DNA from: Myxococcota bacterium | Lineage (GTDB): Bacteria; Myxococcota_A; UBA9160; UBA4427 | Reading direction: 5' to 3' | Assembly (NCBI GenBank): GCA_050618075.1 | Contig: JBNLVL010000034.1 | Location: 271,268 to 335,267, forward strand | Length of the DNA: 64,000 nt | In this document: positions 1,647-39,604 of the stretch, piece by piece | How the letters are laid out: each line of letters begins with the position of its first letter | Numbering within the stretch: position 1 is the first letter of the stretch | Position numbers and translations under genes: made by a program | The notes under the pieces: generated by a model | Seen by the model: only the letters and a program-made list of their open reading frames with translations | Database searches by the model: none | What the model was told of the DNA's origin: nothing

Positions 1647-1653
1647 GCGGCGC

Positions 1654-1950
1654 TCAGCCGCCCGACTCGGCCGCCCAGGCCTCCGGGGTGAACGTGCGCA
1701 TGGCCAGGGCGTGGATGTCGCGCTCCATCTCCTCGGCCAGCACCTGGAAGACCAGCCGCTGGGCGGCCACCCGCGACAGCCCCTGGAACCTCTCGGAGAC
1801 GATGGTGGCGCGGAAGTGACCGCGGCCGTCGCGGGCGCCCGCGTGTCCGGCGTGGAGATGGCTCTCGTCCTCCACCTCGACGTGGGTGGCCTCGAGGGCC
1901 TCGCGAAGCCTCGCCTCGATGCGCGCTCGCCGGTCGCCTGCTTCGGCCAT
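1654..1950 (-). CDS. bolA: BolA-family protein
   Basis: Last 98 codons of track ORF 1654..2757. Sequence ...HVEVEDESHLH...GHFRATIVSERFQGLSRVAAQRLVFQVL... is BolA-like. ATG 1948-1950 overlaps the upstream stop (TGATG). Confidence 0.8.
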   Translation of the reverse strand: MAEAGDRRARIEARLREALEATHVEVEDESHLHAGHAGARDGRGHFRATIVSERFQGLSRVAAQRLVFQVLAEEMERDIHALAMRTFTPEAWAAESGG

Positions 1951-3110: not shown

Positions 3111-3138
3111 CGTCGACCTCGGTGGCGTGGGTGTCGGG

Positions 3139-4272: not shown

Positions 4273-4483
4273 CGGGGGGACCTCTGTGGGTTCGTCCGCT
4301 CGCTCCCGCGAATCGGGGCCGGCCGGCCGGGACGCCCGCCGCTGGCGCAGGCGGCGCGGATGGTAGTGCGAGCGGAATGGGGTGTCAGCATCCTCGCAGG
4401 GCCCCCTGCGCCGGCGCCGGGCTCGATCGCTCGCCTTGACGGCGCTTCGACACTCCCGCAGCCTTCGGCCCCCGGGAGACCCG

Positions 4484-6688: not shown

Positions 6689-6699
6689 TTGTAATACAA
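6689..6699. promoter_or_regulatory. Perfect 11-bp palindrome TTGTAATACAA (candidate operator), overlapping a -10-like TATTAC for the minus-strand operon
   Basis: Arms TTGTA/TACAA around a central A. A minus-strand promoter candidate is TTGCCG (6714-6719), 17 nt of spacer, then TATTAC (6691-6696). A half-site TTAATACAA follows at 6701-6709. Confidence 0.4.
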
Positions 6700-6792: not shown

Positions 6793-6803
6793 TGTATTAC
6801 AAT
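6793..6803. promoter_or_regulatory. Second copy of the palindrome (aTGTATTACAA, 10/11) containing the -10-like TACAAT 7 nt before the ATG of the RHH gene
   Basis: TACAAT at 6798-6803 and ATG at 6811. No purine-rich SD lies in between, which suggests a leaderless or near-leaderless transcript. Confidence 0.4.
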
Positions 6804-19700: not shown

Positions 19701-19804
19701 TCCTGCGGCCCAAGGTGGCCACGGCCCTGCTCACCGACGAGCAGCGCGAAGCCCTCCGCCTCCAGCGGGAGGCCGAGCGCCGCAAGGGCCTGCTCGACGA
19801 CTGA
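16739..19804 (+). CDS. RND-superfamily MMPL-type transporter, 1021 aa
   Basis: Two 5-6-helix TM bundles (about aa 270-470 and 800-990), each preceded by a large soluble loop. The second loop carries an acidic, Trp-rich insert. ATG with an AGGA SD. Confidence 0.85.
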   Translation: MSEAPVHSVSDSWVQKVARWITDHRYFVASMLILSTLFFFYPILNAMLTGAGLPLPGPTVRVDTEARAQWPDHPFIHAQDKFAGVFGTSSLVAIAVVVEEGTIFTPEVIAKIDRITKRLDGLGFDSKTDERDDLRWELEEQGLEGPEIQKILDRRYPPYPVNHYQVSSVTHSGTRVIQIEASGDITSSTLMGEVPETQEEADAFGALVRQNPPIIYGRYVSRDQKGALITAGFVTDRLSGLETFQAVFDHVDQIKQDEETDNVRIYVSGAPILVGWILRHAYQIGFFLLLSTSTIFGLLWLYFRRWHGVLIPLIAAIATVIWGFGFTGWVGITFDPLILVIPSIITARAISHTVQMAERFFEDYETMLPQIGDPEQAKIEVATVAMGELIVPGTLGIVTDTVGLLVILVTSIPQMRDLGIFGAFWVASIIVTVEILHPILICFMPAPTEHEHFLPNFMIRFTRAVGNVTTHPRWKYAIAGVTVLLFVSSTYITLFHSQVGEARPGTPLLFPDHPWNEATAQIAERFGGIDSFVVYADGDKKDAAGDAAPILRMEEFERWMSAYTNLGTTVSVVPILRTTWRMNHYGDPKWLFVPNDQATVRQQLFQLRTNGPPGFLRPFMTDDGRHANISFFYPDHKGETILQVVAASREFIKRNPIGEVIVRLEKDHAAPDAPFFSYDSLADKWYYMLGPLLPPRNHTLKVSVRTDDGTYETRTVNMVNGGGEADLPEWIEEFRENAIYDYEDKFDSVEEGEIFTWPETLADWDTSDVDAWWEDGELGIRAVAVNTKDLIVEDLKAIDAVPSYQSTNSWTRGVQFVMAGGLMGIIAAIDDEVERSHVANIALIFLVIFVLHSVTYQSVPSGAIILLQIATATMLSLAYMALAGLGLNINTLPVQSVGVGIGVDYAIYIVDRIRHEVADTEDIDEAVRRAVRTTGMAVSFTATTIVGGIITWTASDLRFQAEMARLLSILMVINMFGAITVVPAFYSILRPKVATALLTDEQREALRLQREAERRKGLLDD

Positions 19805-20271: not shown

Positions 20272-20321
20272 ATTCGAACACATTTTCCCGCGCAATGCTC
20301 GATGGACATTGGAGAATTTCG

Positions 20322-20351
20322 TTGTCCTCGATCAATGACTCGGCGTATAAC
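20322..20351 (+). promoter_or_regulatory. Sigma70-like promoter candidate TTGTCC-N18-TATAAC for the giant OMP gene
   Basis: Lies in the only AT-rich stretch upstream of 20455. An AACAA-N7-TTGTT inverted repeat (20349-20365) overlaps the -10 and predicted start. Confidence 0.3.
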
Positions 20352-20454
20352 AAGTTTCAGTTGTTGTCGTAGGGGGGGCAGCCCGCGGTCGTTCACTGGG
20401 GAGAACGGCCACGGCGATCCGCAGGGTCGGCCGCCTCGAGATGCGGGGTGATCG

Positions 20455-23400
20455 GTGAAGACGATGCGCGAGTTCGAGTGGCGGAGGCAGCGATCCGGGC
20501 GCCCGCTCTCCTCCAGCCACGAGGGACCGAATCGCTCCGGTGTCCACCGCCCGCGTGCTCGACGCTCTGGGTGGCCGTCGGTCGCATGGCTCGCGCTGCT
20601 GGGAATCGCAGCCCTGTCGGCCGCCGCTCCGGCCCGCGCCTTCGAGGCCTTCGACGGTCGTTTCCAGGCTCACGGCTTCTTCGAGTCCCAGATGCGCGCG
20701 ATCAGCGCGGACTACGCCGAGCAGTGGGACATCGTCCAGTGGTACCAGATCTTCAACCTGGAGGTGGAGCTCGACATCCTGCCCGACGGGATCGGCTTCA
20801 TCGACTCCATCTCCGGGTTCGTGCGGGCCGAGGTCCGCTACGACTGCGTCTACTCCCGCGGCTGCGGGACGATGCGCAACGTGAACACCGTGGGAGACCG
20901 CGCGAAGCGGCTTCCGCGGCGACTCGCGAACGGCCGTGAGAACGTTGCCGCCGGCGCCTTCCTGGTGGAGCCCGAAGGCGAGCGCCTGTCCAAGAACCGC
21001 GACCCGGTGCCGTTGAGCGAGGTGGCGGGATTCAAGACCGCAGCCGAGCAGGAAGGAGCGGACAACCGGCTCGGCGGCGTGAAGACCTCGTGGACCAAGA
21101 GCGTGTTCGTCCAGGGCGAGGGCTTCCAGGAGACCACGATCCAGAGCCGCTTCGACGATCCGTTCCCCTACCTCTTCGAGCGCTTCGACGACTTCCGCTT
21201 CACCCACGTCCAGCAGATCGGTGGCGGGATGAACGGCCTGCCCGTGGCGATCATGGGCCCCTGGCTGCCCAAGAACTTCATCGTGGCCAACGCCGGCCTG
21301 GCCGATCGCATCAATCCCTTCGACGACTCGCGCCAGAGCCCCGTCGTGAAGGCCGCCGCCTACAACTCCGCCTTCAAGAGCAAGTACGTGGACGAGGGCC
21401 GGACGCTGGGACGACCGGAGCGGGCGGCCTCCTTCGCGCGCACGGTGACCGGCTCGGGCGCCCTGCCCTTCCGGCCGATCCCGCCCCAGGACGAGGGCAA
21501 CTACGGCGTCAAGAACGGACGGGCCCGGGGCATCTACATCCCCAGCCGGCCGGCGCGTGAGCTGATCCAGGCCGGCAAGATCGACGACTTCACCAACGCG
21601 CTGAACTTCCGCGAGTCCGAGCGCGCCTGGAACCGGGGCGCCAGCCAGCAGGACGAGAAGGAGCTGAAGGAGGCCTACCTCGACATCGACATGTTCGACA
21701 GCCGCCTCTGGCTGCGGATCGGCAAGCAGCAGATCGTCTGGGGCAAGACCGAGCTCTTCCGCACCACGGACCAGTTCAACCCCCAGGACGTCGCGCTCGC
21801 CTCGCTTCCCAGCCTGGAGGAGTCGCGGATCGCCCTCTGGTCGGCGCGCGCGGTCTACTCGTTCTACGAGGTGGGCCCCCTGGAGGACGTGCGCCTCGAG
21901 CTCGCGGTCAACTACGACGACTACGAGTCGGCGGACTTCGGCGCCTGCGGCGAGGCGTTCACCGTCAACCTGGTCTGCCAGGGCGCCTTCGGCGCCTTCG
22001 CCCACGGACTCACGGGCATCGGCCTGCTCGGCGCGCGCACGCCCGAGGACCCCTGGAACGACCGGCGCGGGATCGAGTTCGGCGGGCGACTGGAGTGGCG
22101 CTGGGACCGGTTCTCCTTCGCCATCAGCGACTTCTACGGCTACGACGACTTCCCCTACGTCGAGCGGGTGTCGACCTTCGAGCGCAACGTCGACCCGAAG
22201 TCGGGGCGGCCGCGGATCATGGGGTCCCGCAACCCCTGCCCGCAGGGCTACGAGGACGAGTGCCTCATGCCGGGCCCGAGCAAGAGCCGCACCAAGAGCA
22301 CGGTGGTCGGCCACTACAACGACCCCGACAACCAGAAGCGGCACCGCAAGGCCTACCGCTCGAAGCCGGACTCCTACCAGAACGTGCCCAAGGTGGCCTT
22401 CAACGACCCGAACAACGCACTGCTCAACCATTCGGCGAACCAGCAGGTCTTCGCCATGATCTGCGCCACCACGATCGGCGTGGTGGACCTCGACGGCTCC
22501 GCCTGCGCACAGAACGTGTTCGGATCGGTCGCGCCCGCACTCGATCTTCCCGGGGTCAACTTCACCGTCGGCCAGGCCGCCTCCGCCATCCTGGCCGGAT
22601 CGGAGCAGGCCGCCCGCCTGATCTTCCTGCGCACCGGCTTCAACCTCGCGGACTTCCTCGTCGAGCTCAACGCGGACATCAACGACGTCGGCGCCGGTAG
22701 CAACCCCAACACCACCCGTCTGGTCCGCCAGAACAACATCGACGCGGGTGGCAACATCTCGAACAAGGACCCCGGCGGGTCGAACAAGGCCCTGCGCCTC
22801 AGCACCGAGTGCCTGGACTACAACTTCAACCCGGCCGGGATGCCCTGCGGCGGCGTGCCGGTGGGCGACCCCAGGGCAGCGGGCTCCGGCGACTTCATGC
22901 GCGAGGGCCTGGCGCTGACCCAGAAGCTGTCTCCGTACCAGGAGGCCCTCATCGGCTGCGGTCCGTTCTTCGGAACCAACTGCGACGACTCGGGCATCGA
23001 CTGGCTGAACGCCGAGTACACGTCCATGATGCAGTCGTTCGTGGGCTTCGAGGGCACGCGGGCGGGCTGGCGCACCGACAACTCGCTGCTGGGCCCCCAG
23101 CCGGGCACCATCGGATTCGTCGGGGGCCCGGTCTGCCTGTCCAACTACCTCTGGCCCGAGGGCCACAAGAATCGCAGTCGTGGGGACATCCGGCTGCCCG
23201 GGTGCCGGAGCGCCTACAAGGCCGACGGCAGCGTGAAGGACCGGCGGGCCGGGAACCCCCTGCTGCTCGTCGAGTACAACGCCGCGAAGGACGGCTGCGT
23301 GCGCTACGACCCCAACGTGCCGGGCTGCAACGATCCTTCGCTGCGGACGCTCGAGCAGCCGATCCTCAAGATGACCCAGGGCGTGTCCCAGGTGTTCGAG

Positions 23401-24339
23401 AACGAGATGGCGGCGCTCTCCTGGAACTTCATGATGCTCACCGCGTCCCAGGACGACGAGTTCAAGAAGTTCCAGAAGCAGGCCAAGAAGAAGAAGATCG
23501 CCAAGCTCGCCGATCAGGGCATCAACGTCGGCGAGTCCGACCCCAGGGTCCAGAAGGCGAGCCGGAACGAGGCGCTGAAGGCAGGGCAGTGCAGCATGGT
23601 CACGCCGCAGTACTGCGAGAACATCCAGGGCCTGCTGCGGCTGGGCGGCATCTCGCGCCCGGACGTCAAGGCCTCGGGCAACGGCACCTTCGGGCGACGG
23701 TCCTTCACCTGGCACAACGGCGGCGAGCTGGTGATCCGCGCGAACAAGCGCAACGTGCTGGGCTTCTCCTCGGACTTCGCCATCGACAGCCTCAAGTCGA
23801 ACTTCAGCATGGAGTTCACCTGGATCCCGGACAATCCGCGCTCGAACACCGAGTCGTACGACGGCCTCATCGAGGTCGACCAGTACAACCTCACGGTCTC
23901 GGCGGACCGCCCCACCTTCATCAACTTCCTGAACGCCAACCGCACGTTCTTCTTCAACACCCAGTGGTTCTTCCAGTACCTGGACGGCTACCGGAAGGGC
24001 AGCGGAGCCGGCCCCTGGAACGTGCTCATGACCTTCGCGGTCACCACGGGCTACTACCAGGACCGGCTGCTCCCCACGGTGGCGGCGGTGTACGACTTCC
24101 GCTCCGTCTCCGGCGCGGTCCTGCCCCAGGTGACCTACCGGTACAACGAGGCGTTCTCGGTCACCGTGGGCGCCAACATCTTCATGGGCAAGGCCGATCA
24201 GGTCGACATGTCGGTGAACCCGGTGGCGCTCAGCAACCGTGTCCAGGGACGGCGCACCTACAAGAACCAGGCGGAGAACGGCCTGGCCGTGTTCAGGGAC
24301 CGCGACGAGGTCTTCGTCCGGCTCCGCTACACGTTCTAG
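20455..24339 (+). CDS. Giant (1294 aa) DUF1302-like outer-membrane beta-barrel protein
   Basis: Signal peptide ...VAWLALLGIAALSAAAPARA/FEAF. Motif EAYLDIDMFDSRLWLRIGKQQIVWGKTELFRTTDQFNPQD. C-terminal beta-signal ...VFVRLRYTF. Start is GTG 20455 or ATG 20464. Confidence 0.7.
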   Translation: MKTMREFEWRRQRSGRPLSSSHEGPNRSGVHRPRARRSGWPSVAWLALLGIAALSAAAPARAFEAFDGRFQAHGFFESQMRAISADYAEQWDIVQWYQIFNLEVELDILPDGIGFIDSISGFVRAEVRYDCVYSRGCGTMRNVNTVGDRAKRLPRRLANGRENVAAGAFLVEPEGERLSKNRDPVPLSEVAGFKTAAEQEGADNRLGGVKTSWTKSVFVQGEGFQETTIQSRFDDPFPYLFERFDDFRFTHVQQIGGGMNGLPVAIMGPWLPKNFIVANAGLADRINPFDDSRQSPVVKAAAYNSAFKSKYVDEGRTLGRPERAASFARTVTGSGALPFRPIPPQDEGNYGVKNGRARGIYIPSRPARELIQAGKIDDFTNALNFRESERAWNRGASQQDEKELKEAYLDIDMFDSRLWLRIGKQQIVWGKTELFRTTDQFNPQDVALASLPSLEESRIALWSARAVYSFYEVGPLEDVRLELAVNYDDYESADFGACGEAFTVNLVCQGAFGAFAHGLTGIGLLGARTPEDPWNDRRGIEFGGRLEWRWDRFSFAISDFYGYDDFPYVERVSTFERNVDPKSGRPRIMGSRNPCPQGYEDECLMPGPSKSRTKSTVVGHYNDPDNQKRHRKAYRSKPDSYQNVPKVAFNDPNNALLNHSANQQVFAMICATTIGVVDLDGSACAQNVFGSVAPALDLPGVNFTVGQAASAILAGSEQAARLIFLRTGFNLADFLVELNADINDVGAGSNPNTTRLVRQNNIDAGGNISNKDPGGSNKALRLSTECLDYNFNPAGMPCGGVPVGDPRAAGSGDFMREGLALTQKLSPYQEALIGCGPFFGTNCDDSGIDWLNAEYTSMMQSFVGFEGTRAGWRTDNSLLGPQPGTIGFVGGPVCLSNYLWPEGHKNRSRGDIRLPGCRSAYKADGSVKDRRAGNPLLLVEYNAAKDGCVRYDPNVPGCNDPSLRTLEQPILKMTQGVSQVFENEMAALSWNFMMLTASQDDEFKKFQKQAKKKKIAKLADQGINVGESDPRVQKASRNEALKAGQCSMVTPQYCENIQGLLRLGGISRPDVKASGNGTFGRRSFTWHNGGELVIRANKRNVLGFSSDFAIDSLKSNFSMEFTWIPDNPRSNTESYDGLIEVDQYNLTVSADRPTFINFLNANRTFFFNTQWFFQYLDGYRKGSGAGPWNVLMTFAVTTGYYQDRLLPTVAAVYDFRSVSGAVLPQVTYRYNEAFSVTVGANIFMGKADQVDMSVNPVALSNRVQGRRTYKNQAENGLAVFRDRDEVFVRLRYTF

Positions 24340-25176: not shown

Positions 25177-25545
25177 TCAGCCGTCGAGCCGTCGCAGCCG
25201 CAGGACGTTCCCCGGGCGGACCAGCGCTTCGAGCCACGCGGTCAGCACCCGAAGGCCTCGCTGAGGCCGTCCTGCCTCGAGGATCACCCGCTCGCCCGCC
25301 TCGAGGTCGACCTCCACCTCGGGCGACCGGCCCCAGTCGATCCGGACCTGCACGCGGTGGCGCCCGGGCGGAACGCAGAGCTGCGTGGTCCGGCCGAAGG
25401 CCACCGCACCGGCCTCGTGGCCGTCGACGCGGATCGAGAGGCGCCGGAGGGCTGCGATCCAGTGGCGCGTACGCCGGACCTCGATGCAGGCGAGCGGCGC
25501 GGGCTCCGGATGCCGGGCGCCGGGTGCTTCGTTCGCGGGCTTCAT
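25177..25545 (-). CDS. Hypothetical 122-aa protein, ATGA-coupled to the Rhs gene (candidate immunity/partner)
   Basis: ATG 25543-25545 overlaps the Rhs stop (TGA 25542-25544). AAGGAGGAG SD lies inside the Rhs 3' end. Beta-rich pattern RVDGHEAGAVAFGRTTQLCVPPGRHRVQVRI. Confidence 0.6.
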   Translation of the reverse strand: MKPANEAPGARHPEPAPLACIEVRRTRHWIAALRRLSIRVDGHEAGAVAFGRTTQLCVPPGRHRVQVRIDWGRSPEVEVDLEAGERVILEAGRPQRGLRVLTAWLEALVRPGNVLRLRRLDG

Positions 25546-28500
25546 GAACTCCTCCTTCGGGACCGGCTCGTCCGACGCGTGCGGGCGAGCGCGAGAACGG
25601 CGACCCACGGCGCGACCTCGAACCCCAGTCCGCAGGCGGGGCCGCCCACCTGGAGGGAATCGACTGTGCCGTCGATCACCATGTAGGCCCGGCTCGGGGC
25701 GTGCCACCGGGCCGGTCCGGGACGCCTGTAGCCTTCCACCTCTCCGGGACGGATGTCCATTCCGGCGTCGGCCGAAGGCGAAGATCCGTCGGGCCCGCCG
25801 TCCCTCGGCACGATGAGCGGGCTGAACTCTTCGATGAACTGGCCGAAGCCGACCCCCTGGCGCCCCGTCGACATCTGGTAGATGTGGTTGGCCACCGAGA
25901 AGCCCAGCAGAGAGCCAGCGGCGCTGCCCAGCGGGCCTCCGGCTTCGAAGCCGACCGCTCCGCCGAGGAGGGTCATGCCGCCGATGAAGAGGCCCCACGC
26001 GTACTGGGAGCTCGGCGTCGATGGCGCCGTGGGGCGGGCCTGACGACCGTCCGGGTCCCAGAACGAGACCGGATTGCCCTGCGTGTACGCGTACTGGTTG
26101 ACCAGCTGGTGGATCGGGTCGGGCGCCAGGAAGGCCGCCGCATCCGGATCGAGGACGCGGTGGCCGAGCACCAGCAGACGCCCGGCGCGCAGCCCGCGGG
26201 CGAAGTCGAACGGGTCTTCCTCGGAGCCCAGCTCGGCCCGCGCGCCGTAGGCGCCGTAGAGCAGGTAGCGGACCACCTTCCCGTCATCGTCCGAGACCAG
26301 GTGCACGTTGCCGCGGAAGTCGTAGTGGCGGAAGAGCCGCTCCCCGGTGCGGAGATCGGACCGAACCTCGGCGTGCTGGATGGCGCTCGGCTCGCCGTCG
26401 GCATCGGCCTCCACCCGTCCCCCGAAGCGATAGCGCACGACTTCGGCGCCGATCCGGCGCCAGAGCGGCCGCCCCGAGGTGTCCCACGCGAACTCCGTGT
26501 GCCCGCCGATCCCGCGGATGCGGCCGGCGCCGTCCCAGTCGATGGACTCGCCGTCGCGCTCCACCACGAAGCCGCCGTCGTCGTAGTTGTACGTGTGGGT
26601 CCGCTCCGCGCAGGGGGCCGGTGCATCGATCCCGAGCAGCCGATTGCGTTCGGCGTTGAAGAGCGCCGTCACCGACTCGTCCTCCTCCTCGCACGTGAAG
26701 CTGCTGCGATTGGAGAGCTGATCGTAACGGTGGAAAGTGTACTCCGCGGAGTCGGGCTCCCGGCTGAAGAGCAGCCTCCTTCCCACCGGCTCCGCGGAGG
26801 GGCCGATCTGGCCGGTCTCGAAGAGCTCCTCTGCGGGAACCGGCTGATCGCTCGCGATCAGGGCCCACGACAGGCTGCGAAGGCAGGTCCGGGCGGCGCA
26901 GATGGTTCCATCCGCGCGCTCGTAGAAGCGCTCGGCCAGCGGCCCGCCGCCCCCCACGGGTCGCAGCGACGTCTCGGTGATCTCGCCCGTGGTGGGGTCG
27001 TAGTCGGCCGTGTACTTGAGCCCGTTGGCGTAGCGGGTCCTCGTGAGCAGGCCGTCCACGTAGGTCCGATCGAGCAGGGTCTCGCCATCCTCGAGGAGCT
27101 CGACCTCACGGTCGGCGAGATCGTAGCGGCGCTCCAACGCCGTCAGCACGGAGAGCTCCGGTCGCAGGTACCGCTCGGCGACGATCCGCGAGCGCGCGTC
27201 GTAGTCGAGCCACAGCTGCTCGCCCTCCGGAAACACGATGATCGCGAGGCGCCCGGCGGCGTCGTACACACGGTGCTCGGTTCCAGGCCGAAGCGAGTCG
27301 GACAGCGCGACCAGGCGTCCGCCCTGGTAGCTCCGCACCTCGTCGGACTCCAGGACGCCGTCGCGCAGGACGGCGTGGCGCACGACGCGGCCGAGCGGAT
27401 CGTACTCCCACTCTTCACGCATCCCGTTGGGGCGCTCGATGGCCGTGGTCCGACCGGCCGTGTCCAGCTCGATGTGCGTGGTCTTCCAGGCTCCGTCGAC
27501 GCGGTCGCGCCGGGCCACGACCCGCCCCAGCGCATCGTAGTCCCACTCGCAGTCGCCCCCGAACGGACGCCGCATGCGCAGGGGGCGGCCGTCGCTGCGA
27601 TAGTCGATCTCGAGCCAGAGCGGATCGTCGGGGGAGAACGCGAACTCCTGCGCGACGAGCTCGTAGCCGATCGGGTTGCGGTCGCCGTCGTAGCGCACGC
27701 TGCGGATGCCGCCGCCGCCGTCGCGCGCCGCACCCCAGGGATCGGCTCCGGTGGTCCGGTTGCCCACCCCGTCGAACTCCAGGTCGCGCGGATCTCCGAC
27801 CAGGTCGACGGCTCGGGCGTGCCCCCGAGCGGTGTAGTCCTGGTACAGGAGGGATCCGCCGGCGACGCGGTTCACGCGGCGGAGCATCTCGTCTCCGCCG
27901 TACTCGAGGGTCGCTGACTCGCCCTCTCCGTTGCCGAGCTCGACGAGCCGGCCTACGGCGTCGTAGCGGCGGGTCTCGATGGCGCCGAGGTCGTCGTGGA
28001 TGTTCGCGATGGGCGTCGACTCCGGCGCCTCGCGGTCGACCGCGTCCCGGGCGTACTCGAAGCGCACCACGTTGCCCGACGGCTGGATCTCGCTCGTCAC
28101 GTCGTCGTTCTCGAGGGTCCAGCGAGTGACGAGGCCGTCGGCGTCCGTCCGCGAGACCGGACGCACGCCGACCCAGGTCGTGGTCTGGCGGTTGCCGAGG
28201 GGATCGACCGTCTCGCGCAGACGACCCCGGTCGTCGGAGGTGTACGACCACGCGCCCCCCAGGACATCGACGAGGTCGACCCGGTGGAGCCCGTCCACCA
28301 CGTCGCCCCAGACGATCCCCACCGTCGGATCCGTCTCCCCGACCTGGCGTGCGATCACTGGACGACCGTTCCGGTATTCGAACTCGAAGCGCTCCTCTTC
28401 GGAGGTCCGGATCGAAGCCAGCTGGCTGCCCGCGTAGGTGTAGCGGAAGCCCGGCCAGCCCTGCTCCATGTCCAGGGGATCCCGGGCCGCCTCGAGGCGT

Positions 28501-29198
28501 CCCTCTGCGTCGTAGCTGAAGCGCGCCCGACGACCCGCCCCGTCCAGCAGCCAGAGAATGCGGCCGGCTGGATCGCGATGGACCGTGACCAGGGGGTCGA
28601 GGGCGCCCCCGACGCGCTCCTGGACGATGCGTCGAAGCCGCAGCCCGGCCTCGGTGTCGCCGTACTCGAACAGCAGCCGAGGCAGCGCCGAGCTCGTCCA
28701 CCGGACCTCGGCGAGCTGACCGCTCGCGACGTCGAAGCGGTGCAGCAGACCGCCCTTGGTCTTCAATGCATTCCCGGAGACGACCACCCAGTGGGTCCCG
28801 GGGAGGGCGCCCCCGGGCGGCACCGCCGCCGCGTCGTGGCGCGCTCCCGTCGCGTCGGTGAAGACGGTCCCGTCGAAGTGCAGCTCGAAGCTCCAGCGCC
28901 AGGCCCGGTCCGCGGAGTTCCAGACGGCGCCCACGCGTTGGCGGCCGAGCTGGGAGTCGACCACGAGATCGGTGCGCTCGACGGTCAGGTTGGCCGTGGC
29001 CAGGTTGATCTCCGCCCCGGGCACCTCGACGACGGCGGCCCGCTGGTAGTCCGGAGTGCCCGCCACGGGTGTGATCGCTCCGTCTCCACATCGACTTCCC
29101 AGCAAGGTCACGGCCAACAGGGCCAGCCCGCCGGCTCGCAGCACGCCGGCTCGCAGCACGCCGAGTTCGGCGGCAGAAGTGGGTCGGTCTCCCAACAT
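25542..29198 (-). CDS. Rhs / YD-repeat protein with N-terminal signal-like segment and atypical C-terminal extension
   Basis: 1218 aa. Many YD repeats (SYDAEGRL, RYDAVGRL, DYDALGRV, EYDPLGRV, VYDAAGRL). Core-end motif NQYAYTQGNPVSFWDPDG. N-terminus ends ...GGLALLAVTLLGSRC. Confidence 0.9.
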   Translation of the reverse strand: MLGDRPTSAAELGVLRAGVLRAGGLALLAVTLLGSRCGDGAITPVAGTPDYQRAAVVEVPGAEINLATANLTVERTDLVVDSQLGRQRVGAVWNSADRAWRWSFELHFDGTVFTDATGARHDAAAVPPGGALPGTHWVVVSGNALKTKGGLLHRFDVASGQLAEVRWTSSALPRLLFEYGDTEAGLRLRRIVQERVGGALDPLVTVHRDPAGRILWLLDGAGRRARFSYDAEGRLEAARDPLDMEQGWPGFRYTYAGSQLASIRTSEEERFEFEYRNGRPVIARQVGETDPTVGIVWGDVVDGLHRVDLVDVLGGAWSYTSDDRGRLRETVDPLGNRQTTTWVGVRPVSRTDADGLVTRWTLENDDVTSEIQPSGNVVRFEYARDAVDREAPESTPIANIHDDLGAIETRRYDAVGRLVELGNGEGESATLEYGGDEMLRRVNRVAGGSLLYQDYTARGHARAVDLVGDPRDLEFDGVGNRTTGADPWGAARDGGGGIRSVRYDGDRNPIGYELVAQEFAFSPDDPLWLEIDYRSDGRPLRMRRPFGGDCEWDYDALGRVVARRDRVDGAWKTTHIELDTAGRTTAIERPNGMREEWEYDPLGRVVRHAVLRDGVLESDEVRSYQGGRLVALSDSLRPGTEHRVYDAAGRLAIIVFPEGEQLWLDYDARSRIVAERYLRPELSVLTALERRYDLADREVELLEDGETLLDRTYVDGLLTRTRYANGLKYTADYDPTTGEITETSLRPVGGGGPLAERFYERADGTICAARTCLRSLSWALIASDQPVPAEELFETGQIGPSAEPVGRRLLFSREPDSAEYTFHRYDQLSNRSSFTCEEEDESVTALFNAERNRLLGIDAPAPCAERTHTYNYDDGGFVVERDGESIDWDGAGRIRGIGGHTEFAWDTSGRPLWRRIGAEVVRYRFGGRVEADADGEPSAIQHAEVRSDLRTGERLFRHYDFRGNVHLVSDDDGKVVRYLLYGAYGARAELGSEEDPFDFARGLRAGRLLVLGHRVLDPDAAAFLAPDPIHQLVNQYAYTQGNPVSFWDPDGRQARPTAPSTPSSQYAWGLFIGGMTLLGGAVGFEAGGPLGSAAGSLLGFSVANHIYQMSTGRQGVGFGQFIEEFSPLIVPRDGGPDGSSPSADAGMDIRPGEVEGYRRPGPARWHAPSRAYMVIDGTVDSLQVGGPACGLGFEVAPWVAVLALARTRRTSRSRRRSS
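29131..29160 (-). repeat. Perfect 15-bp tandem duplication (CCGGCTCGCAGCACG x2) inside the Rhs signal region
   Basis: Read directly from the sequence. It encodes the duplicated pentapeptide in ELGVLRAGVLRAGG. Confidence 0.9.
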
Positions 29199-29311: not shown

Positions 29312-30157
29312 TCAGGCCTTCTCGCTGCGCAGCTTGCGGAAATCGGGCTCCCGCTTCTGGAGGAAGGCCATGACGGCCTCGATGTTCTCGGGAGACCCCG
29401 CCTGCTGCACCATGCCGGCGTTCTCGGCCTCGCGCGCCGCCTGGATGCCGGCGCGATGGGCGGCCATCAGGCAGCGCTTCGTGGCCTGCAGGGAGCTCAC
29501 GGGCCAGCGCGCCATCTCCCGGGCCTTCGCCAGGACCGCCTCCAGGAGCTCGTCGTCCGGGTAGGCGCGCGCGGCGATCCCCACCTCCACGGCGCGCTCG
29601 GCCCCGACCCACTCGGCGGTGAAGAAGAGCTCGGCCGCGCGCTGCTGTCCGATCGTGGCCTGGAGCAGGTAGCTGCTGGCGGCTTCGGGGACCAGGCCGA
29701 GGCTCACGAACGGCATGCGCAGGCGAAGCCCCTGACCGACGTAGACGAGGTCGCAGTGGTACAGGAAGGTGGCGCCGATCCCCACGGCCACGCCCGTGGC
29801 GGCCGCGAGAAGCGGCTTGTCGAAGGCGCAGAGGGAGTCCATGCACTGCTGGAAGGGATGGGCCTGGATCCCCTCCCGGGCCGTCGCCCCGTCGCCGGCG
29901 CCCTCGCCGGCCGGGTCGCCGGCCGGCATGAACGAGGAGAGATCCTGGCCGGCCGAGAACTCGCCCCCGGCTCCGGTGACGACCACCACCCCGACGTCGG
30001 GATCCTCGCGCGCCTCGTCCAGGGCGTCGCGGAGCTGGATCCACTGCGCATCGTCGAAGGCGTTCTTGCGTCGCGGCCGGTCGAGGGTGAGCAGCAGCAC
30101 GCCGTCGGCGAGCTCTCGGCGGACACGGCGCTCCTCGTCGCTCGGTCGTTCGCTCAC
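29312..30157 (-). CDS. Enoyl-CoA hydratase/isomerase (crotonase family)
   Basis: 281 aa with LLLTLDRPRRKNAF and VVVTGAGGEFSAGQDL. GTG start overlaps the upstream stop (GTGA). Confidence 0.9.
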   Translation of the reverse strand: MSERPSDEERRVRRELADGVLLLTLDRPRRKNAFDDAQWIQLRDALDEAREDPDVGVVVVTGAGGEFSAGQDLSSFMPAGDPAGEGAGDGATAREGIQAHPFQQCMDSLCAFDKPLLAAATGVAVGIGATFLYHCDLVYVGQGLRLRMPFVSLGLVPEAASSYLLQATIGQQRAAELFFTAEWVGAERAVEVGIAARAYPDDELLEAVLAKAREMARWPVSSLQATKRCLMAAHRAGIQAAREAENAGMVQQAGSPENIEAVMAFLQKREPDFRKLRSEKA

Positions 30158-31800
30158 GCCTGGGCGCCGGCCTGGGCCCGCGCCGCGGAGAGCTCGCTCG
30201 CGAGCTTCTTCGAGCCCTTGTAGTCCGCCTTGCCGTTGGGCCCGCGGAACACCTCGTCCACGACGTACACTTCCTTCGGGACCTTGTAGCCGGCGACCAG
30301 GGTGCGTGCGTGCTCCTGGACGGCCTTCTCACCCGGGTCCGAGGCCGAGTCCTCGATCGAGACCAGCGCGACCACGCGCTGCCCCCACTTCTCGTCGTCG
30401 ACGCCCACGACCACGGCGTCCTTCACCGCCGGGTGGGAGACGAGGGCGTTCTCCACCTCCTCGATGAAGATCTTCTCGCCCCCCGAGTTGATGCAGACCG
30501 AGCCGCGGCCGTAGAGCTTGACGGTTCCGTCCTCCATCACCTCGGCGATGTCCCCGGTGATCGAGTAGCGCTCGCCGCCGAGAGTCACGAAGGTCTCGGC
30601 GGTCTTCTTGGGGTCGTTGTAGTAGCCCATGGGGACGTGCCCCTTGAGGGCCACGCGACCGCGCACCCCCGAGCCGGGCTTCACGATCTGGTGGTCGTCG
30701 TCCAGGACCACGGTGCGTTCGTTCATCTGGAAGGAGAGCCCCTGTCCGAAGCTCTTCGTCTCGGCCCCCGAGCCCTGCCCCTGGTACCCGGTCTCGGTGG
30801 AGCCGTAGCTGTCCAGCAGCATCGTGTTCGGGAGCTGGGCCTTGAGGCGCGCCTTCACCGGCTCGGAGAAGATGGCGCCCGCCGAGCCGATCGCGAACAG
30901 CATCTTGATCTCGTGGCGGCCGGTCCCGGCGTTGCGCTCCAGGGCCTCGGCGATGGGCCTCGCCATGGCGTCGCCCACGATGGAGAGCGAGTTCACGTTC
31001 TCCTCCGCGAGCAGCCGCACGACGTCCTCGGCGTCGAAGCGCGGCTGCATCACCAGCTTGTTGCCGGCGTTGAAGGCGATGAAGGTCGCGAGCTGCGCGG
31101 CGCCGTGGATGAGCGGTGGAGCCGCCATCATGGTGAGCTGCATGGGCGCGTTCTTCGCCCGCTCGACGAGCTCCTCGACGCTCTTCACCGGGTTCCCGCC
31201 CTGGGGATCTCCGCCGGCCATGCCGGCGAAGAAGATGTCCTCGTGGCGCCACATCACACCCTTGGGCATGCCCGTGGTGCCGCCGGTGTAGATGATGAAG
31301 AGGTCGTCGCCGCTGCGCGGCTCGAACACCCGCTCGGGACTGCCCTCGGCGAGGGCGGCGCCGAACTCCACCGACCCGATCGCCTCCACGTCGGCCCCGC
31401 TGCCGTCCTCGACGTGGACGAGGGTCTCCAGGGCCGGACACTCGTGCTTCACGGCGGCGATGCGCGGGGCGAACTCGCGGTGGTGGACCACCGCCTTCAG
31501 GTCGGCGTTGTCGAACAGGTAGCGGAGCTCCTCCTCGACGTACCGGTAGTTGATGTTGATGGGAACCGCGCCGAGCTTGAAGCACGCGATCATGGTCGTC
31601 ACGTACTCGGCCGAGTTGTACATGTAGGTGCCGACGTGGTCCCCGCGCCCGACCCCGCGCGCCTCGAGCGCGTGGGCGAGCTGGTTGGCCCGGCGTTCGA
31701 ACTCCGCGTACGAGTAGCGCTGGTCCCCGCACACGAAGCACTCGCGATCGGGGATCGCGTCGGCCATCGCCTCGAAGATGTCGGCCATCTGGAAACTCAT
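30154..31800 (-). CDS. Acyl-CoA synthetase (AMP-forming, FadD-like)
   Basis: ATG 31800 (MSFQMADIFEAM...) with a GGGAGAG SD. AMP-binding motif IIYTGGTTGMPKGV. The upstream part of track ORF 30154..32298 is another gene's shadow frame. Confidence 0.9.
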   Translation of the reverse strand: MSFQMADIFEAMADAIPDRECFVCGDQRYSYAEFERRANQLAHALEARGVGRGDHVGTYMYNSAEYVTTMIACFKLGAVPININYRYVEEELRYLFDNADLKAVVHHREFAPRIAAVKHECPALETLVHVEDGSGADVEAIGSVEFGAALAEGSPERVFEPRSGDDLFIIYTGGTTGMPKGVMWRHEDIFFAGMAGGDPQGGNPVKSVEELVERAKNAPMQLTMMAAPPLIHGAAQLATFIAFNAGNKLVMQPRFDAEDVVRLLAEENVNSLSIVGDAMARPIAEALERNAGTGRHEIKMLFAIGSAGAIFSEPVKARLKAQLPNTMLLDSYGSTETGYQGQGSGAETKSFGQGLSFQMNERTVVLDDDHQIVKPGSGVRGRVALKGHVPMGYYNDPKKTAETFVTLGGERYSITGDIAEVMEDGTVKLYGRGSVCINSGGEKIFIEEVENALVSHPAVKDAVVVGVDDEKWGQRVVALVSIEDSASDPGEKAVQEHARTLVAGYKVPKEVYVVDEVFRGPNGKADYKGSKKLASELSAARAQAGAQA

Positions 31801-31826
31801 CGTATCTCTCCCGGAAGAAATGGGTT

Positions 31827-32291
31827 CTAGTAGACGCCGCCCAGCTTCCCGTGGTCCCAGCTCACGAACCTGTCGGGCTCGATCACGATGGCGGTCTTCT
31901 TCGGAGCCATGGCCCTCGAGGCCTTCTCGATCACTTCTTCGCCCAGCTCGGGCGTGTTGCGCCTGAGGACCTCCATGTGGAGGCGATGGACGTCCTCGAC
32001 GTCCCGGATCAGCCGGGCTCGCCCCCGGATCTGCACGGCCTTGAGCTGCTCGTAGACGTCGCCGTCCTCGAACAGCAGGGTCACCCGCGGATCGCGCTCC
32101 AGGTTCTTCACCTTCTGGGACTTGGTGAAGGTCTCGAGCACGATCTTCCCGTCGACCAGCCCGAACCAGAGGGGCACGAGGTGCGGCGCGCCGTCGGGTC
32201 CGATGCTCGCGAACTGCACGGTCTTCTGGCTCTCGATGAAACGCCAGATCTCGTCCTCGCTCATCACGATCTGATCGCGACGTTTGGGCAT
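31827..32291 (-). CDS. Pyridoxamine 5'-phosphate oxidase-family (PPOX-class, possibly F420/FMN-dependent) protein
   Basis: 154 aa. The call rests on the split-barrel pattern ...TVQFASIGPDGAPHLVPLWFGLVDGKIVLETFTKSQKVKNLERDPRVTLLFE.... Confidence 0.7.
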   Translation of the reverse strand: MPKRRDQIVMSEDEIWRFIESQKTVQFASIGPDGAPHLVPLWFGLVDGKIVLETFTKSQKVKNLERDPRVTLLFEDGDVYEQLKAVQIRGRARLIRDVEDVHRLHMEVLRRNTPELGEEVIEKASRAMAPKKTAIVIEPDRFVSWDHGKLGGVY

Positions 32292-32441
32292 GGCTCACTC
32301 CGTGGCCGACCGCCCCACGCGCGGCGCGGGCGTCGGCGTCATGGGTGGGTCGTGTGGCTGACTTCCCCCAGCCTGCGGCGTACGGCGGCCTGAACTCGAT
32401 TCAAACGCCGTTCGGCCGGACCGGATGCATCCGCACCAGAT

Positions 32442-32455
32442 TAGAACACGTTTCA
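32442..32455. promoter_or_regulatory. KstR-type TetR operator-like box TAGAACACGTTTCA
   Basis: Fits TnnAACnnGTTnnA at all 8 fixed positions. It lies in the divergent region between the PPOX-fadD-ech operon and the secreted-protein gene. Confidence 0.45.
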
Positions 32456-32548
32456 TCCCGGCCGTCACCTTTGTGAAACCCCGTCGAGGCGATTCCGGTT
32501 ATGGTGTCCCCTCGAAGCCACGACGCCGTGCTCGATGGAGGGGGAACC

Positions 32549-33034
32549 ATGACACCGGCTCGAATCCGCCGACTCTCGCTCACGCTGCTCACCGCGCTCT
32601 CGATGCTGGCGGCGGTGACGGTCCACGCCCAGCTCGCGGCGTGGGACCAGGAGCGCGTGACCGCGGCGGCCCACGATTTCTCGCAGTCCGCGGGGAAGGT
32701 CTACAGCGAGCTCTACCGGAACCAGGTCACCTACACCATCGGCTCCGGGCAGTCCAAGGACTACCAGCGGCTGCGGGACAAGGTGCGGGTGATCCGCTCC
32801 GAAGCGCGCCGGCTCACCCGGCAGCTCGAGAAGGGCAAGGGCCGCGATGCGACCCTTCCCATCTACGAGCGCATGATGGTCGACGTGCGCGACGCCCGGG
32901 AGATCGCACGGCGGCTCAATCTCGGTGAAGCGCTGCTGAACAAGATCGGGGCCGCGGGCGATGCCCTGCGTCGGCTGGGCCCCTACTACGACCCGAAGGC
33001 CAACCAGAACCCGGAGGCCCCGGCCTCCGAGTAG
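32549..33034 (+). CDS. Secreted all-helical hypothetical protein (161 aa)
   Basis: ATG 32549 with a GGAGGGGG SD. Signal peptide MTPARIRRLSLTLLTALSMLAAVTVHA/QL. Confidence 0.6.
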   Translation: MTPARIRRLSLTLLTALSMLAAVTVHAQLAAWDQERVTAAAHDFSQSAGKVYSELYRNQVTYTIGSGQSKDYQRLRDKVRVIRSEARRLTRQLEKGKGRDATLPIYERMMVDVRDAREIARRLNLGEALLNKIGAAGDALRRLGPYYDPKANQNPEAPASE

Positions 33035-33064
33035 CGGCCGCAGCCGCCGGCGTACGGGCGCGGC

Positions 33065-33982
33065 TCAGCCCTCGGAGGGCGAGACGCGCATGGCGCGCAG
33101 ACGGATCCCCAGCGGCCCCCGGGGCACGTCGAAGGTCAGCATCCGGCCGTCCCGCTCGACCTGCACCCGCACCCGCTCGCCCGGCTCGCCGGCGGCGATC
33201 TCGTCGATGAGCTCGGTCCGCCGGAAGACCGGCGTTCCGGCGTAGCCCGTGATCCGATCGCCCGACTGGAGGCCCGCCGCACCGGCCGCCGACCCGTCGA
33301 TGACGTCGAGCACGACCACCCGGTTGGGCTGGCCCGTGGCGAAGAGCATGAGGTCGTAGCGGTCGACGCCGAGCTCGGCCACGAGGGCCGCATCGAGCGC
33401 GCGGCTCTCCTTGCGGAAGCGGAGCTTCTGGCGCCATCCCTCCCGGGAGGCCCGATCGCTGAGGCTCATCTTCTCGAGCTGGTGCTCGGACCAGCGCTTG
33501 CGCAGCGCCTCGATCTCGGAGTCGCCGAGCCCGAGCGCGGCGAGGGCCTCCTCGTCGAACCAGGGACGCAGCTCGGGGGCGCCGGCAGGCGCGCCGGAGC
33601 TCCCCGGGCGGCCCGTCGCGGCCGCGGCGGATCCTCCGGCCGGAGCTCCTGGCCGCGCCTCCGCCACCGCGGAGGCTCCTCCACCCTCGGGCAGCGCCTC
33701 CTCCAGGCGCGCGAGCAGGCCGAGCTCGAACACCTCCTGGCGAAGCTGCTCGACTTCGCCGGCGAGCTGCTGACGCGCCCTCCGCTCGGCGTCGAGCTCG
33801 GCGGTCAGCGCCTCGATCGCGGGCACCGGCTCGCCGGCGGGCGCGGCGGGCTCCCCGGCGGACGTCCCCAGCCAGGACGTCGCCACGGCCCCCGCGGCCC
33901 CCGCTCCCACCAGGGCGGCGAGGACGACGGCGGCGCGCCGGAGGTCGATCCGGTCGGAGCGATGGGGGAAGGGCTCGTTCAC
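33065..33982 (-). CDS. Membrane-anchored coiled-coil protein with a C-terminal PDZ domain
   Basis: 305 aa. TM segment AAVVLAALVGAGAAGAVA, coiled coil AELDAERRARQQLAGEVEQLRQEV, and PDZ-like VVVLDVIDGSAAGAAGLQSGDRITGYAG. Confidence 0.7.
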   Translation of the reverse strand: MNEPFPHRSDRIDLRRAAVVLAALVGAGAAGAVATSWLGTSAGEPAAPAGEPVPAIEALTAELDAERRARQQLAGEVEQLRQEVFELGLLARLEEALPEGGGASAVAEARPGAPAGGSAAAATGRPGSSGAPAGAPELRPWFDEEALAALGLGDSEIEALRKRWSEHQLEKMSLSDRASREGWRQKLRFRKESRALDAALVAELGVDRYDLMLFATGQPNRVVVLDVIDGSAAGAAGLQSGDRITGYAGTPVFRRTELIDEIAAGEPGERVRVQVERDGRMLTFDVPRGPLGIRLRAMRVSPSEG

Positions 33983-34111
33983 GAAGTCTCCCGGTTCCCT
34001 ACGAGGGCCGAAGGCGCCCGGCGGTTCCGAGAGAGTAGGGGACCCGGGGAGCGCGGCGCGGCGGGCGGGATCGCTTTACAAGCGGCACGCCACGGGTCAG
34101 ACTGAACCAGG

Positions 34112-34125
34112 TAGAACACGTTCCA
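34112..34125. promoter_or_regulatory. KstR-type TetR operator-like box TAGAACACGTTCCA
   Basis: Fits TnnAACnnGTTnnA at all fixed positions. Shares 11 identical nt (TAGAACACGTT) with the box at 32442. It ends 57 nt upstream of the ACAD ATG. Confidence 0.45.
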
Positions 34126-34182: not shown

Positions 34183-35358
34183 ATGCACATCGACTTCACC
34201 CCGGAGCAGCGGAAGTTCCGGGACGAGCTTCGCGACTACTTCGGCAAGATGATGACCGAGGAGCTGGTCCGGGAGATCAGCGGCACCGAGGGGGGCGGCC
34301 CGCTCTACCGCAAGGCCCTGAAGCAGATGGGGTCGGACGGGCTGCTGGGCATCGGCTGGCCCGAGGAGTACGGCGGCGGCGCGCGCAGCAAGGTGGACCA
34401 GTTCATCTTCTCCGACGAGGTCCAGCGCGCCGGCTACCCCCTGCCGTTCCTCACCCTCAACACCGTCGGCCCCACGCTGATGCGCTACGGCAACGACGAT
34501 CAGCGCGCCGAGTTCCTGCCCCGCATCCTGAAGGGCGAGCTCCACTTCTGCATCGGCTACTCGGAGCCCGGGGCGGGCACCGACCTGGCTTCACTCAAGA
34601 CCCGGGCCGAGAAGGACGGTGACGAGTGGGTGATCAACGGGCAGAAGATGTGGACCAGCCTCGCCGACTTCGCCGACTACGTCTGGCTGGCGGCGCGCAC
34701 GGATCCCGACGCCAGGAAGCACGCGGGCATCAGCATGTTCATGGTGCCCACGAGCGCCAAGGGCTTCGGCATCTCGCCGATCATGACCGTGGGCGGCGTG
34801 CGCACCAACGCCACCTTCTACGACGACGTCCGCGTTCCCGACGAGCACCTGATCGGAGGGCTCAACCAGGGCTGGTCGCTGATCGTCGGGCAGCTGAACC
34901 ACGAGCGCGTGTCGCTCATGAACGTGGGTCCGCTGCGCAGGCTGCTCGAGGAGACGACCGAGTGGGCGCGCCAGACCGAGCTGCGGGGCGGCCGGCGCGT
35001 GATCGACGAGCCGTGGGTGCAGAGCAACCTGGCCCGGGTCTACGCCCACGTCGAAGCCCTGCGCGTCATGAACTGGAAGCAGGCGGCGGCCATGGACCAC
35101 GGCCAGCTCCACCCGGCGGACGCCTCGGCGCTGAAGGTCTTCGGCAGCGAGTTCTACATCACCGGCTACCGCGCGCTGATGGAGGTCGTCGGCCACGGCG
35201 CGATCCTCGGGCCGGACTCGCCGGGCGCCGTGCTCCAGGGACGCCTCGAGAGCCGCTACCGGAGCTCGCTCATCCTGACCTTCGGCGGCGGCACCAACGA
35301 GGTGCAGCGCGACATCATCGCCATGGCCGGTCTCGGCCTGCCCCACTACAAGAGCTGA
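34183..35358 (+). CDS. Acyl-CoA dehydrogenase, GGGT-type subunit
   Basis: ATG 34183 (MHIDFTPEQRKFRDEL...). Contains YSEPGAGTDLASL, INGQKMWTS and LTFGGGTNEVQRDIIA. Confidence 0.9.
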   Translation: MHIDFTPEQRKFRDELRDYFGKMMTEELVREISGTEGGGPLYRKALKQMGSDGLLGIGWPEEYGGGARSKVDQFIFSDEVQRAGYPLPFLTLNTVGPTLMRYGNDDQRAEFLPRILKGELHFCIGYSEPGAGTDLASLKTRAEKDGDEWVINGQKMWTSLADFADYVWLAARTDPDARKHAGISMFMVPTSAKGFGISPIMTVGGVRTNATFYDDVRVPDEHLIGGLNQGWSLIVGQLNHERVSLMNVGPLRRLLEETTEWARQTELRGGRRVIDEPWVQSNLARVYAHVEALRVMNWKQAAAMDHGQLHPADASALKVFGSEFYITGYRALMEVVGHGAILGPDSPGAVLQGRLESRYRSSLILTFGGGTNEVQRDIIAMAGLGLPHYKS

Positions 35359-35368
35359 GGAGGGGGTC

Positions 35369-39585
<4,217 letters not shown>

Positions 39586-39604
39586 TCACCTCCTCCGCAT
39601 CGAT

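Follow-up and report, generated by a model that had tools for sequence, protein, structure and literature searches.

Predicted KstR-type operators ahead of a ChsE4/5-like acyl-CoA dehydrogenase pair and a FadD operon suggest a KstR-like regulon in uncultured Myxococcota

The motif of the TetR-family repressor KstR (Rv3574 / MSMEG_6042) has been defined as TnnAACnnGTTnnA, and the purified protein binds as a dimer and represses its own gene (Kendall 2007, PMC1995591). The KstR regulon lists fadE26, fadE27, fadD17, fadD19 and echA19; sites positive in the electrophoretic mobility shift assay (EMSA) lie in the Rv3503c/Rv3504 (fdxD/fadE26) and Rv3515c/Rv3516 (fadD19/echA19) intergenic regions, a KstR site lies partly over the −10 element of kstR, and KstR has been treated as a regulator of actinomycetes (PMC1995591). 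It has been reported that KstR is released by 3-hydroxycholest-5-en-26-oyl-CoA, and KstR2 (Rv3557c), also a TetR-family repressor of steroid catabolic genes, is released by a CoA thioester (review PMC6678751). Here, we compare with these systems two 14-bp palindromes, box 1 and box 2, found in a 64,000-nt stretch of contig JBNLVL010000034.1 from a Myxococcota bacterium (assembly GCA_050618075.1); this whole stretch, with a GC content of ~71% and ~94% coding in a gene map drawn from GC at third codon positions and Pfam, is called the window. Our overall proposal is that boxes 1 and 2 are very probably operators of a KstR-like TetR repressor encoded elsewhere in this genome. Judged from sequence, the presence of a KstR-like regulon in this diderm lineage, as the original prediction had it, is well supported by the identity of the boxes, by their conserved position and by KstR-like TetR genes of relatives with boxes in their own promoters.

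The boxes and a related copy are as follows, with scores from a position weight matrix (PWM) built from 71 boxes in loci orthologous to the acyl-CoA dehydrogenase (ACAD) locus described below.

32442..32455: box 1, TAGAACACGTTTCA, predicted KstR-type operator in the divergent intergenic region between the PPOX and secreted-protein genes, PWM 26.8
34112..34125: box 2, TAGAACACGTTCCA, predicted KstR-type operator ahead of the ChsE4/5-like ACAD pair, PWM 26.0
20346..20359: box 3, TATAACAAGTTTCA, candidate third operator 95 nt 5′ of a DUF1302-like gene, PWM 21.1
20274..20287: degenerate copy, TCGAACACATTTTC, with two core mismatches, PWM 6.3, probably no site by itself

The coordinates and letters of boxes 1 and 2, which have TAGAACACGTT in common, were confirmed, as was the claim that both fit every fixed position of TnnAACnnGTTnnA; boxes 1, 2 and 3 each satisfy all eight fixed positions, and their variable positions agree with the T-R-R-AAC preference of the 71 related sites. 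Three matches to the motif were observed against 0.05 expected per window, three or more occurred in 0 of 100 dinucleotide shuffles, and the shared 11-mer is present in two copies against 0.08 expected. The PWM found exactly three strong sites in the window, the next best scoring 7.9, while unrelated high-GC metagenome DNA (~620 kb) scored 15.9 at best and gave no site of 18 or more. Despite the ~94% coding window, all three exact matches are intergenic, 57–150 nt from start codons. The alternative that the boxes are chance AT-rich matches or bare promoter hexamers (TAGAAC/TATAAC as −10), with no repressor involved, can draw on the fact that intergenic DNA is more AT-rich than the genome, and on box 3, which is without comparative support and whose 5′ half makes a good −10 (TATAAC) spaced 18 nt from a −35. 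However, the shuffles and the real-DNA control exclude chance for the three sites, and it is the whole palindrome, not a hexamer, that is conserved at orthologous positions across phyla; this explanation is hardly credible overall, and for boxes 1 and 2 it is already refuted in practice. The idea that the boxes belong to a longer repeat or a mobile element was rejected because the similarity ends at the 14-mer. In addition, a lone KstR half-site, ACTAGAAC (minus strand, 31814–31831), lies over the PPOX stop codon in the 26-nt PPOX–FadD gap; with two core mismatches and a PWM score of 7.9, it is probably fortuitous.

Compared with sites known from Mycobacterium tuberculosis, the 14-mer of box 1 is identical to the EMSA-positive KstR sites at Rv1894c/95 and Rv3545c/46. 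Box 2 is one base off the EMSA-positive Rv3570c/71 site, its reverse complement is the predicted MSMEG_0305/0306 site, and its placement, upstream of fadE26/27 orthologues, matches that of an EMSA-positive KstR site in M. tuberculosis. The genes and the predicted promoter around box 2 are as follows.

33065..33982, minus strand: PDZ-domain protein (Pfam PDZ_2, 1e-13), divergent from the ACAD pair, with box 2 129 nt upstream of its start
34075..34103, plus strand: inferred ACAD-pair promoter, −35 TTTACA (34075–80), 17-nt spacer, −10 CAGACT (34098–103)
34183..35358, plus strand: ACAD alpha subunit, ChsE4 (FadE26)-like, best PDB match 4x28_A, E 6e-143
35369..36490, plus strand: ACAD beta subunit, ChsE5 (FadE27)-like, best PDB matches 6wy8_A, 6e-86, and 4x28_D, 4e-60

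Box 2 ends 57 nt ahead of the ACAD ATG at 34183, as had been predicted. The alpha subunit matches M. tuberculosis ChsE4 at 6e-143, against only ~1e-44 for generic ACADs; the beta subunit, whose middle domain gives a weak Pfam match (2e-4), matches the beta chain of 6wy8, the steroid ACAD of Thermomonospora curvata. The two genes lie 10 nt apart and their products best match alpha and beta chains, respectively; the pair at 34183–36490 is classed by these matches as a ChsE4–ChsE5-type ACAD, not a generic one. A scan of a genome collection with the first ACAD gave 80 loci at 57–72% identity, from Myxococcota and ‘Deltaproteobacteria’ metagenome-assembled genomes, Binatia, Acidimicrobiia, Rhodococcus, Prescottella, Nocardia, Nocardioides and others (individual loci and contigs carry L numbers below). 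Of these 80 loci, 39 have an exact box no more than 250 nt ahead of the ACAD start, at a median distance of ~47 nt. Outside this zone, the same loci have 3.2e-5 boxes per bp, equivalent to 0.008 per 250-nt zone; the nominal binomial P for this enrichment is ~6e-60, with the relatedness of the loci left uncorrected. In the aligned and otherwise diverged DNA upstream of the ACAD gene, the box is the sole conserved block, and the 14-mer of box 2 recurs unchanged upstream of the L031 ACAD gene. Contigs binned as Opitutales, Spirochaetales, Halieaceae and Pseudomonadales (L005, L015, L023–L025, L034, L051–L052) likewise carry orthologues of the ACAD pair, some with a box, which reflects either a wider spread of the module or binning errors.

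A scan with the sigma-70 consensus flagged nothing near any box, and the promoters were therefore inferred from alignment with relatives. Box 2 begins 8 nt past CAGACT, across the predicted transcription start, and would span ~+2 to +16; the same layout, TGGACA/TTTACA, 17–18 nt, cATAcT, ~7–9 nt and then the box, is seen in L002, L005, L031, L083 and L168. Two further observations concern this locus. A 16-nt inverted repeat (33987–34002 / 34035–34050), 81% complementary with its arms 32 nt apart, lies upstream of the inferred ACAD promoter. Downstream, GH2 beta-galactosidase-like and GH3/PA14 glycosidase genes (36487–42097) stand where relatives carry FadD, an NMO-like gene and the KstR-like TetR gene; the locus has therefore been rearranged.

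Box 1 lies, as had been claimed, between an operon of a PPOX-class oxidoreductase, an acyl-CoA synthetase and an enoyl-CoA hydratase (ECH) and a gene for a secreted protein, in a divergent gap of 258 nt. Its surroundings are as follows.

29312..30157, minus strand: ECH (crotonase), Pfam ECH_1 6e-41, with a 4-nt overlap with FadD
30154..31800, minus strand: acyl-CoA synthetase FadD, PRK07798 subfamily, NF005863 716 bits, cut-off 543
31827..32291, minus strand: PPOX-class (PNPOx_N) oxidoreductase, first operon gene, Pfam PF01243 4e-21, TIGR03618 82 bits, cut-off 79
32440..32468, minus strand: inferred PPOX–FadD–ECH promoter, −35 GTGACG (32468–63), 17-nt spacer, −10 TCTAAT (32445–40)
32550..33034, plus strand: 161-aa signal-peptide protein, divergent from PPOX, without a Pfam match, the gene also being called in L001

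The operon is real: PPOX and FadD are separated by 26 nt, FadD and ECH overlap by 4 nt, and FadD starts at ATG 31800 with a GGGAGAG ribosome-binding site. Box 1, which reads TGAAACGTGTTCTAAT toward PPOX, occupies the spacer and part of the −10 of the inferred PPOX promoter, and the corresponding layout TTGACC–box–TCTAAT is also present in L009, L011 and L012. The box thus stands upstream of a PRK07798-class FadD and a crotonase, and its comparative support is indirect, from FadD orthologues in box-controlled operons of relatives. At 47–52% identity, such orthologues share an operon or cluster with the ACAD pair in L014, L016, L031, L036 and L082, and in L016, L031 and L082 they lie inside the box-controlled ACAD operon itself; the ligase operon, here detached from the ACAD pair, therefore carries a box of its own. 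PNPOx_N genes are likewise found within the KstR-like clusters of L083, L166 and L168. The signal-peptide protein is a possible second target of box 1. The crotonase was rejected as an EchA19 equivalog (139 bits against a cut-off of 400 for the EchA19 model) and as an orthologue of the box-linked ECH of L012 (28% identity). On the same strand, 113 nt past the crotonase gene, lies a gene for a 1218-aa RHS-repeat protein (25542–29198).

The regulator can be seen in relatives. The original prediction called for a search for KstR-like TetR genes, and such genes are present in related Myxococcota contigs, with the box in their own promoters: a TetR gene lies a few kb from the ACAD pair in eight Myxococcota-type genome loci, and five metagenome contigs carry one as well. 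Against PDB, the L006 TetR matches the KstR structures 5aqc, 5cw8 and 3mnl along its whole length (2e-24), followed by a Rhodococcus TetR at 5e-18 and the remaining TetRs at 1e-8 or weaker. Among NCBIfam models, the relatives' TetR scores 123.7 bits with the KstR model NF033703 (transcr_KstR) and 41 bits with the next family; it contains TetR_N (PF00440) and TetR_C_20 (PF17925), both above the gathering score, as in M. tuberculosis KstR, and the identity of the L031 TetR to that protein is higher in the N-terminal DNA-binding region. An exact box lies at most 60 nt upstream of 9 of 13 distinct KstR-like genes, and a one-mismatch box is found at 2 more; this autoregulation layout, with the operator in the promoter of the KstR-like gene itself, is seen in relatives only. 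KstR2 is a distinct paralogue, scoring E ~1e-4 with the Myxococcota TetR where KstR reaches 2e-24. The KstR2 operator, AnCAAGnnCTTGnT, also differs, and boxes 1–3 do not fit it. FadR of Bacillus and Thermus and PsrA and FadP of Proteobacteria are further TetR repressors of beta-oxidation operons, released by acyl-CoA from palindromic operators over promoters, with operator consensus sequences that differ from the KstR-type box; unlike KstR, Bacillus FadR matches the Myxococcota TetR in the helix-turn-helix region only (E ~1e-8; 35 bits).

At E ≤ 1e-20 there are 1,769 TetR homologues, actinobacterial KstRs probably among them. The best 120 of the 1,769 are 64–92% identical to the query from L031 (Myxococcota), and the few of these 120 that carry a source name are labelled Myxococcota/Myxococcales. 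KstR-like TetRs diverge faster than the ACAD (52% versus 72% for L002), and the regulator of the window genome is therefore probably not among these best 120 homologues.

Several points weigh against the proposal. No TetR gene is found in the window, by Pfam on the open reading frames scanned (a set that excludes, for example, ~55.6–59.5 kb), by a helix-turn-helix pattern search or by tblastn, in which KstR-like queries gave a best E of 0.36; this bears out the original prediction on this point, and none lies within 3.5 kb beyond the left end of the window. The 124 bits of the relatives' TetR fall below the NF033703 equivalog cut-off of 280, for which reason the name ‘KstR-like’ is used and not KstR equivalog, and the L031 TetR is only 32% identical to M. 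tuberculosis KstR. The promoters were placed by eye, the consensus scan being negative; box 1 is nearer to the unrelated secreted-protein gene (94 nt from the box end to its ATG) than to the PPOX ATG (32291, minus strand; 150 nt); the 80 loci are phylogenetically non-independent; and about half of them have no exact box. Against these, the evidence above makes a role as functional KstR-like operators highly likely for boxes 1 and 2.

Two other readings bear on the missing regulator. The boxes might be bound by another regulator, for example the GntR/FCD protein (253–1065) or an unrelated TetR, with a resemblance to KstR sites and nothing more; the lack of a KstR-like gene in the window or the 3.5 kb beyond, the FadR-like GntR/FCD gene in the window beside another ACAD pair, and the commonness of AT-rich palindromes among TetR operators speak for this. 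However, in relatives the box co-occurs with the KstR-like TetR gene and sits in its promoter, and box 1 is identical to EMSA-verified KstR sites, so that this reading appears improbable; the GntR/FCD protein itself was rejected as the binder because no box lies near its gene or the adjoining ACAD pair. The boxes might instead be relics, non-functional after loss of the regulator from the lineage: the TetR gene is ~5 kb from the ACAD pair in relatives, and in the rearranged window GH2/GH3 genes are at that place. Nevertheless, three separate sites keep all eight core positions unchanged, along with the favoured bases at flanking and variable positions, whereas unselected AT-rich 14-mers would be expected to decay at 71% GC. 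Scattered regulon genes are also seen in other relatives, such as L083 and L166. The loss of the regulator is given an equally small share of belief. The favoured reading remains that of operators served by a KstR-like repressor encoded outside the window.

In relatives, the genes around the KstR-like TetR form a recurrent cluster, seen in five independent annotated contigs (L082, L083, L166, L168 and L169), which contains the TetR gene, a Fer4_15 ferredoxin, ACADs including the ChsE4/5-like pair, PNPOx_N, an AMP-binding ligase, two Thiolase_C_1 (Ltp-like) genes and zf-ChsH2/OB_ChsH2_C genes. The boxes of this cluster are located directly 5′ of the TetR gene, in the gap between the ferredoxin and the ACAD pair, 5′ of the ligase–ACAD operon and 5′ of the DUF35–thiolase operon; 12 of the 13 boxes in the five contigs are intergenic, and the 13th is in a probably mis-called 5′ extension. 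As a further observation, L083 (9975–20579), L166 (9430–19010), L168 and L169 each hold four ACADs, two ChsH2-type DUF35 genes and two to four boxes at operon starts. In the related Myxococcota genomes L009 (10547), L011 (9114) and L012 (9116 and 9160), boxes lie between a crotonase and a CYP125-family P450 gene, just downstream of the ACAD pair; the best PDB match of this P450 is the CYP125 ancestor 8vxi (2e-149), followed by M. tuberculosis CYP125 (5e-94) and then by CYP126 and CYP124 (3e-91).

In M. tuberculosis the gene order is fdxD–fadE26–fadE27–fadD17. L083, L166 and L168 resemble this neighbourhood, with a ferredoxin divergent from the alpha/beta ACADs, an operator between them and a ligase adjacent; the window resembles the fadE26/27 locus in having an operator ahead of the ACAD pair. 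Unlike the fdxD/fadE26 and fadD19/echA19 loci, the window places the ligase together with PPOX and a non-EchA19 crotonase in an operon apart from the ACAD pair, with a box of its own, and it has a PDZ-protein gene, instead of a ferredoxin gene, divergent from the ACAD pair. Taken as a whole, the likeness to the KstR regulon lies in the 14-bp palindrome, in the target orthologues (fadE26/27-type ACADs, a FadD19-class ligase and a crotonase), in the predicted placement of the operator at or next to the −10 or the transcription start, and, in relatives, in the autoregulation layout and the TetR_N plus TetR_C_20 architecture. The differences are the diderm Myxococcota host, a relatives' TetR of 32% identity and under the equivalog cut-off, the lack of mce4 or ring-degradation genes in the window, and a possible diderm-specific target, the DUF1302-like gene.

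The target enzymes, putatively of the ChsE4/5 and FadD19 classes, suggest a side-chain-like beta-oxidation in which a steroid role is putative. Ring-degradation genes, mce4 and a CYP125-like gene were not found in the window, and no ring-opening genes (KstD, KshAB, HsaA-D) were found within 10 kb of the KstR-like genes of relatives; a sterol substrate is therefore considered somewhat less likely than not. A KstR-like mechanism may instead govern a non-sterol regulon, for the beta-oxidation of bulky or methyl-branched lipids (isoprenoid, iso-branched or hopanoid-like) with a non-steroid acyl-CoA as inducer. In keeping with this, the same regions lack KshA, KstD and Hsa genes; the clusters are limited to ACADs, FadD, Ltp-type thiolases, DUF35 proteins, ferredoxin and PNPOx; the P450 of relatives matches CYP124, a methyl-branched lipid omega-hydroxylase, about as well as it matches M. 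tuberculosis CYP125; and the ECH of the window is no EchA19 equivalog. In addition, the M. tuberculosis KstR regulon also contains genes linked to growth on palmitate (review PMC6678751). On the other hand, the ACAD pair matches the steroid-specific ChsE4–ChsE5 and the T. curvata ACAD ~100 orders of magnitude better than generic ACADs, the top P450 match is the reconstructed CYP125 ancestor, and the gene set mirrors the fdxD–fadE26–fadE27–fadD17 neighbourhood. The non-sterol alternative, which leaves the KstR-like operators themselves in place, is accordingly a serious one, with nearly an even chance of being right.

A third operator would extend the regulon to the cell envelope. The original prediction had tentatively linked an MMPL/barrel module to the boxes through the copy at 20274; with two core mismatches and a PWM score of 6.3, this copy is probably not the relevant one, and the exact match TATAACAAGTTTCA nearby had been overlooked. 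The link survives in part, in that the better box at 20346–20359 concerns the DUF1302-like gene only and not MMPL.

20455..24339, plus strand: 1294-aa DUF1302-like outer-membrane protein, Pfam PF06980 1e-15, downstream of box 3

Box 3 lies 72 nt beyond the degenerate copy within one intergenic region and follows the MMPL/RND gene (16739–19804) and a GGACT gene. A possible promoter of the DUF1302-like gene consists of a −35 TTGTCC (20322–27), an 18-nt spacer and a −10 TATAAC (20346–51), the latter being the 5′ half of box 3. The box is not conserved upstream of any of 49 distant DUF1302-like relatives (≤51% identity); searching metagenome DNA with the DUF1302-like protein yielded 80 loci (≤51% identity), whose 621 kb contain three unrelated core matches, not one of which lies upstream of the gene. 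These 80 loci show no MMPL synteny, and they also supplied the background control for the PWM. Absence in such distant relatives neither backs nor refutes box 3, and that it is a functional KstR-like operator is somewhat favoured. If real, it controls the DUF1302-like gene and what follows; MMPL falls outside its control because the gene lies upstream of box 3 and has no box.

As for the mechanism, we infer that a regulator encoded in this genome binds the boxes and represses the genes; the promoters and the ligand are likewise predictions. A dimer of the KstR-like repressor would sit on each 14-bp palindrome, with T-R-R-A-A-C as the half-site. Box 2 would lie over the predicted ACAD transcription start and box 1 over the spacer and −10 of the predicted PPOX–FadD–ECH promoter; since the boxes overlap the predicted promoters, the bound repressor would stand in the way of RNA polymerase. 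If the analogy with KstR holds, an acyl-CoA thioester of the pathway may bind the C-terminal TetR_C_20 domain and release the repressor, so that both operons would be switched on together, and box 3 would probably place the DUF1302-like outer-membrane gene under the same control.

Some further features of the window were noted. A second ACAD pair (1950–3110 and 3139–4494), also nearest to ChsE4 (2e-61) and without a KstR box in the region 253–4494 (as also in L171), adjoins the GntR/FCD (FadR-like) regulator, a fatty-acid hydroxylase and BolA, and may be under separate control. In an unusually AT-rich divergent intergenic region, TGTAATACA (6689–6697) and its reverse complement TGTATTACA (6793–6801) stand ~95 nt apart, together with AATACAA repeats; this looks like the operator pair of some other regulator. 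The CoA-transferase III gene (7982–9181) was rejected as an alpha-methylacyl-CoA racemase, its best matches being YfdE and succinate-type CoA-transferases. The region 56000–60000, which spans a DUF58/VWA/BatD-like gene block, has 78% GC compared with ~71% elsewhere.

Myxococcota are known as makers of sterols, not as degraders. No link between KstR and Myxococcota was found by full-text search, and the few papers on steroid degradation and Myxococcota, judged by title and abstract, seem not to address KstR there. It has been reported that there is no evidence of 9,10-seco cholesterol catabolism in Proteobacteria, the absence of Cyp125/Cyp142 and Mce4 being cited (Bergstrand 2016, PMC4810484), while CYP125 has already been noted in some deltaproteobacteria (2022 P450 census, PMC9148083). 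A far-reaching version of the proposal, which we regard as doubtful, is that uncultured Myxococcota carry a complete KstR-type regulon for sterol side chains, comprising repressor, operators, a CYP125-family P450, a ChsE4/5 ACAD, a FadD19-class ligase and Ltp-type thiolases, here wired to a DUF1302-like uptake component of the outer membrane, specific to diderms, that replaces Mce4. If true, this would be the first KstR regulon, and the first cholesterol-type side-chain pathway, outside Actinobacteria, and the regulon would be either ancient or shared with Actinobacteria through horizontal transfer of the regulator, operators and targets together.

What is new is that operator, regulator and targets together point to a KstR-type regulon in a diderm phylum of uncultured bacteria; it extends a well-understood system and brings no new mechanism. 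The KstR operator, a KstR-like repressor and enzymes of the first side-chain cycle recur jointly in many uncultured Myxococcota contigs, a clean case of regulator, operators and targets kept together across phyla. The PWM and the TetR_C_20 regulator give a sequence-defined handle for mapping environmental diderms that degrade sterol-like lipids, together with their uptake genes.

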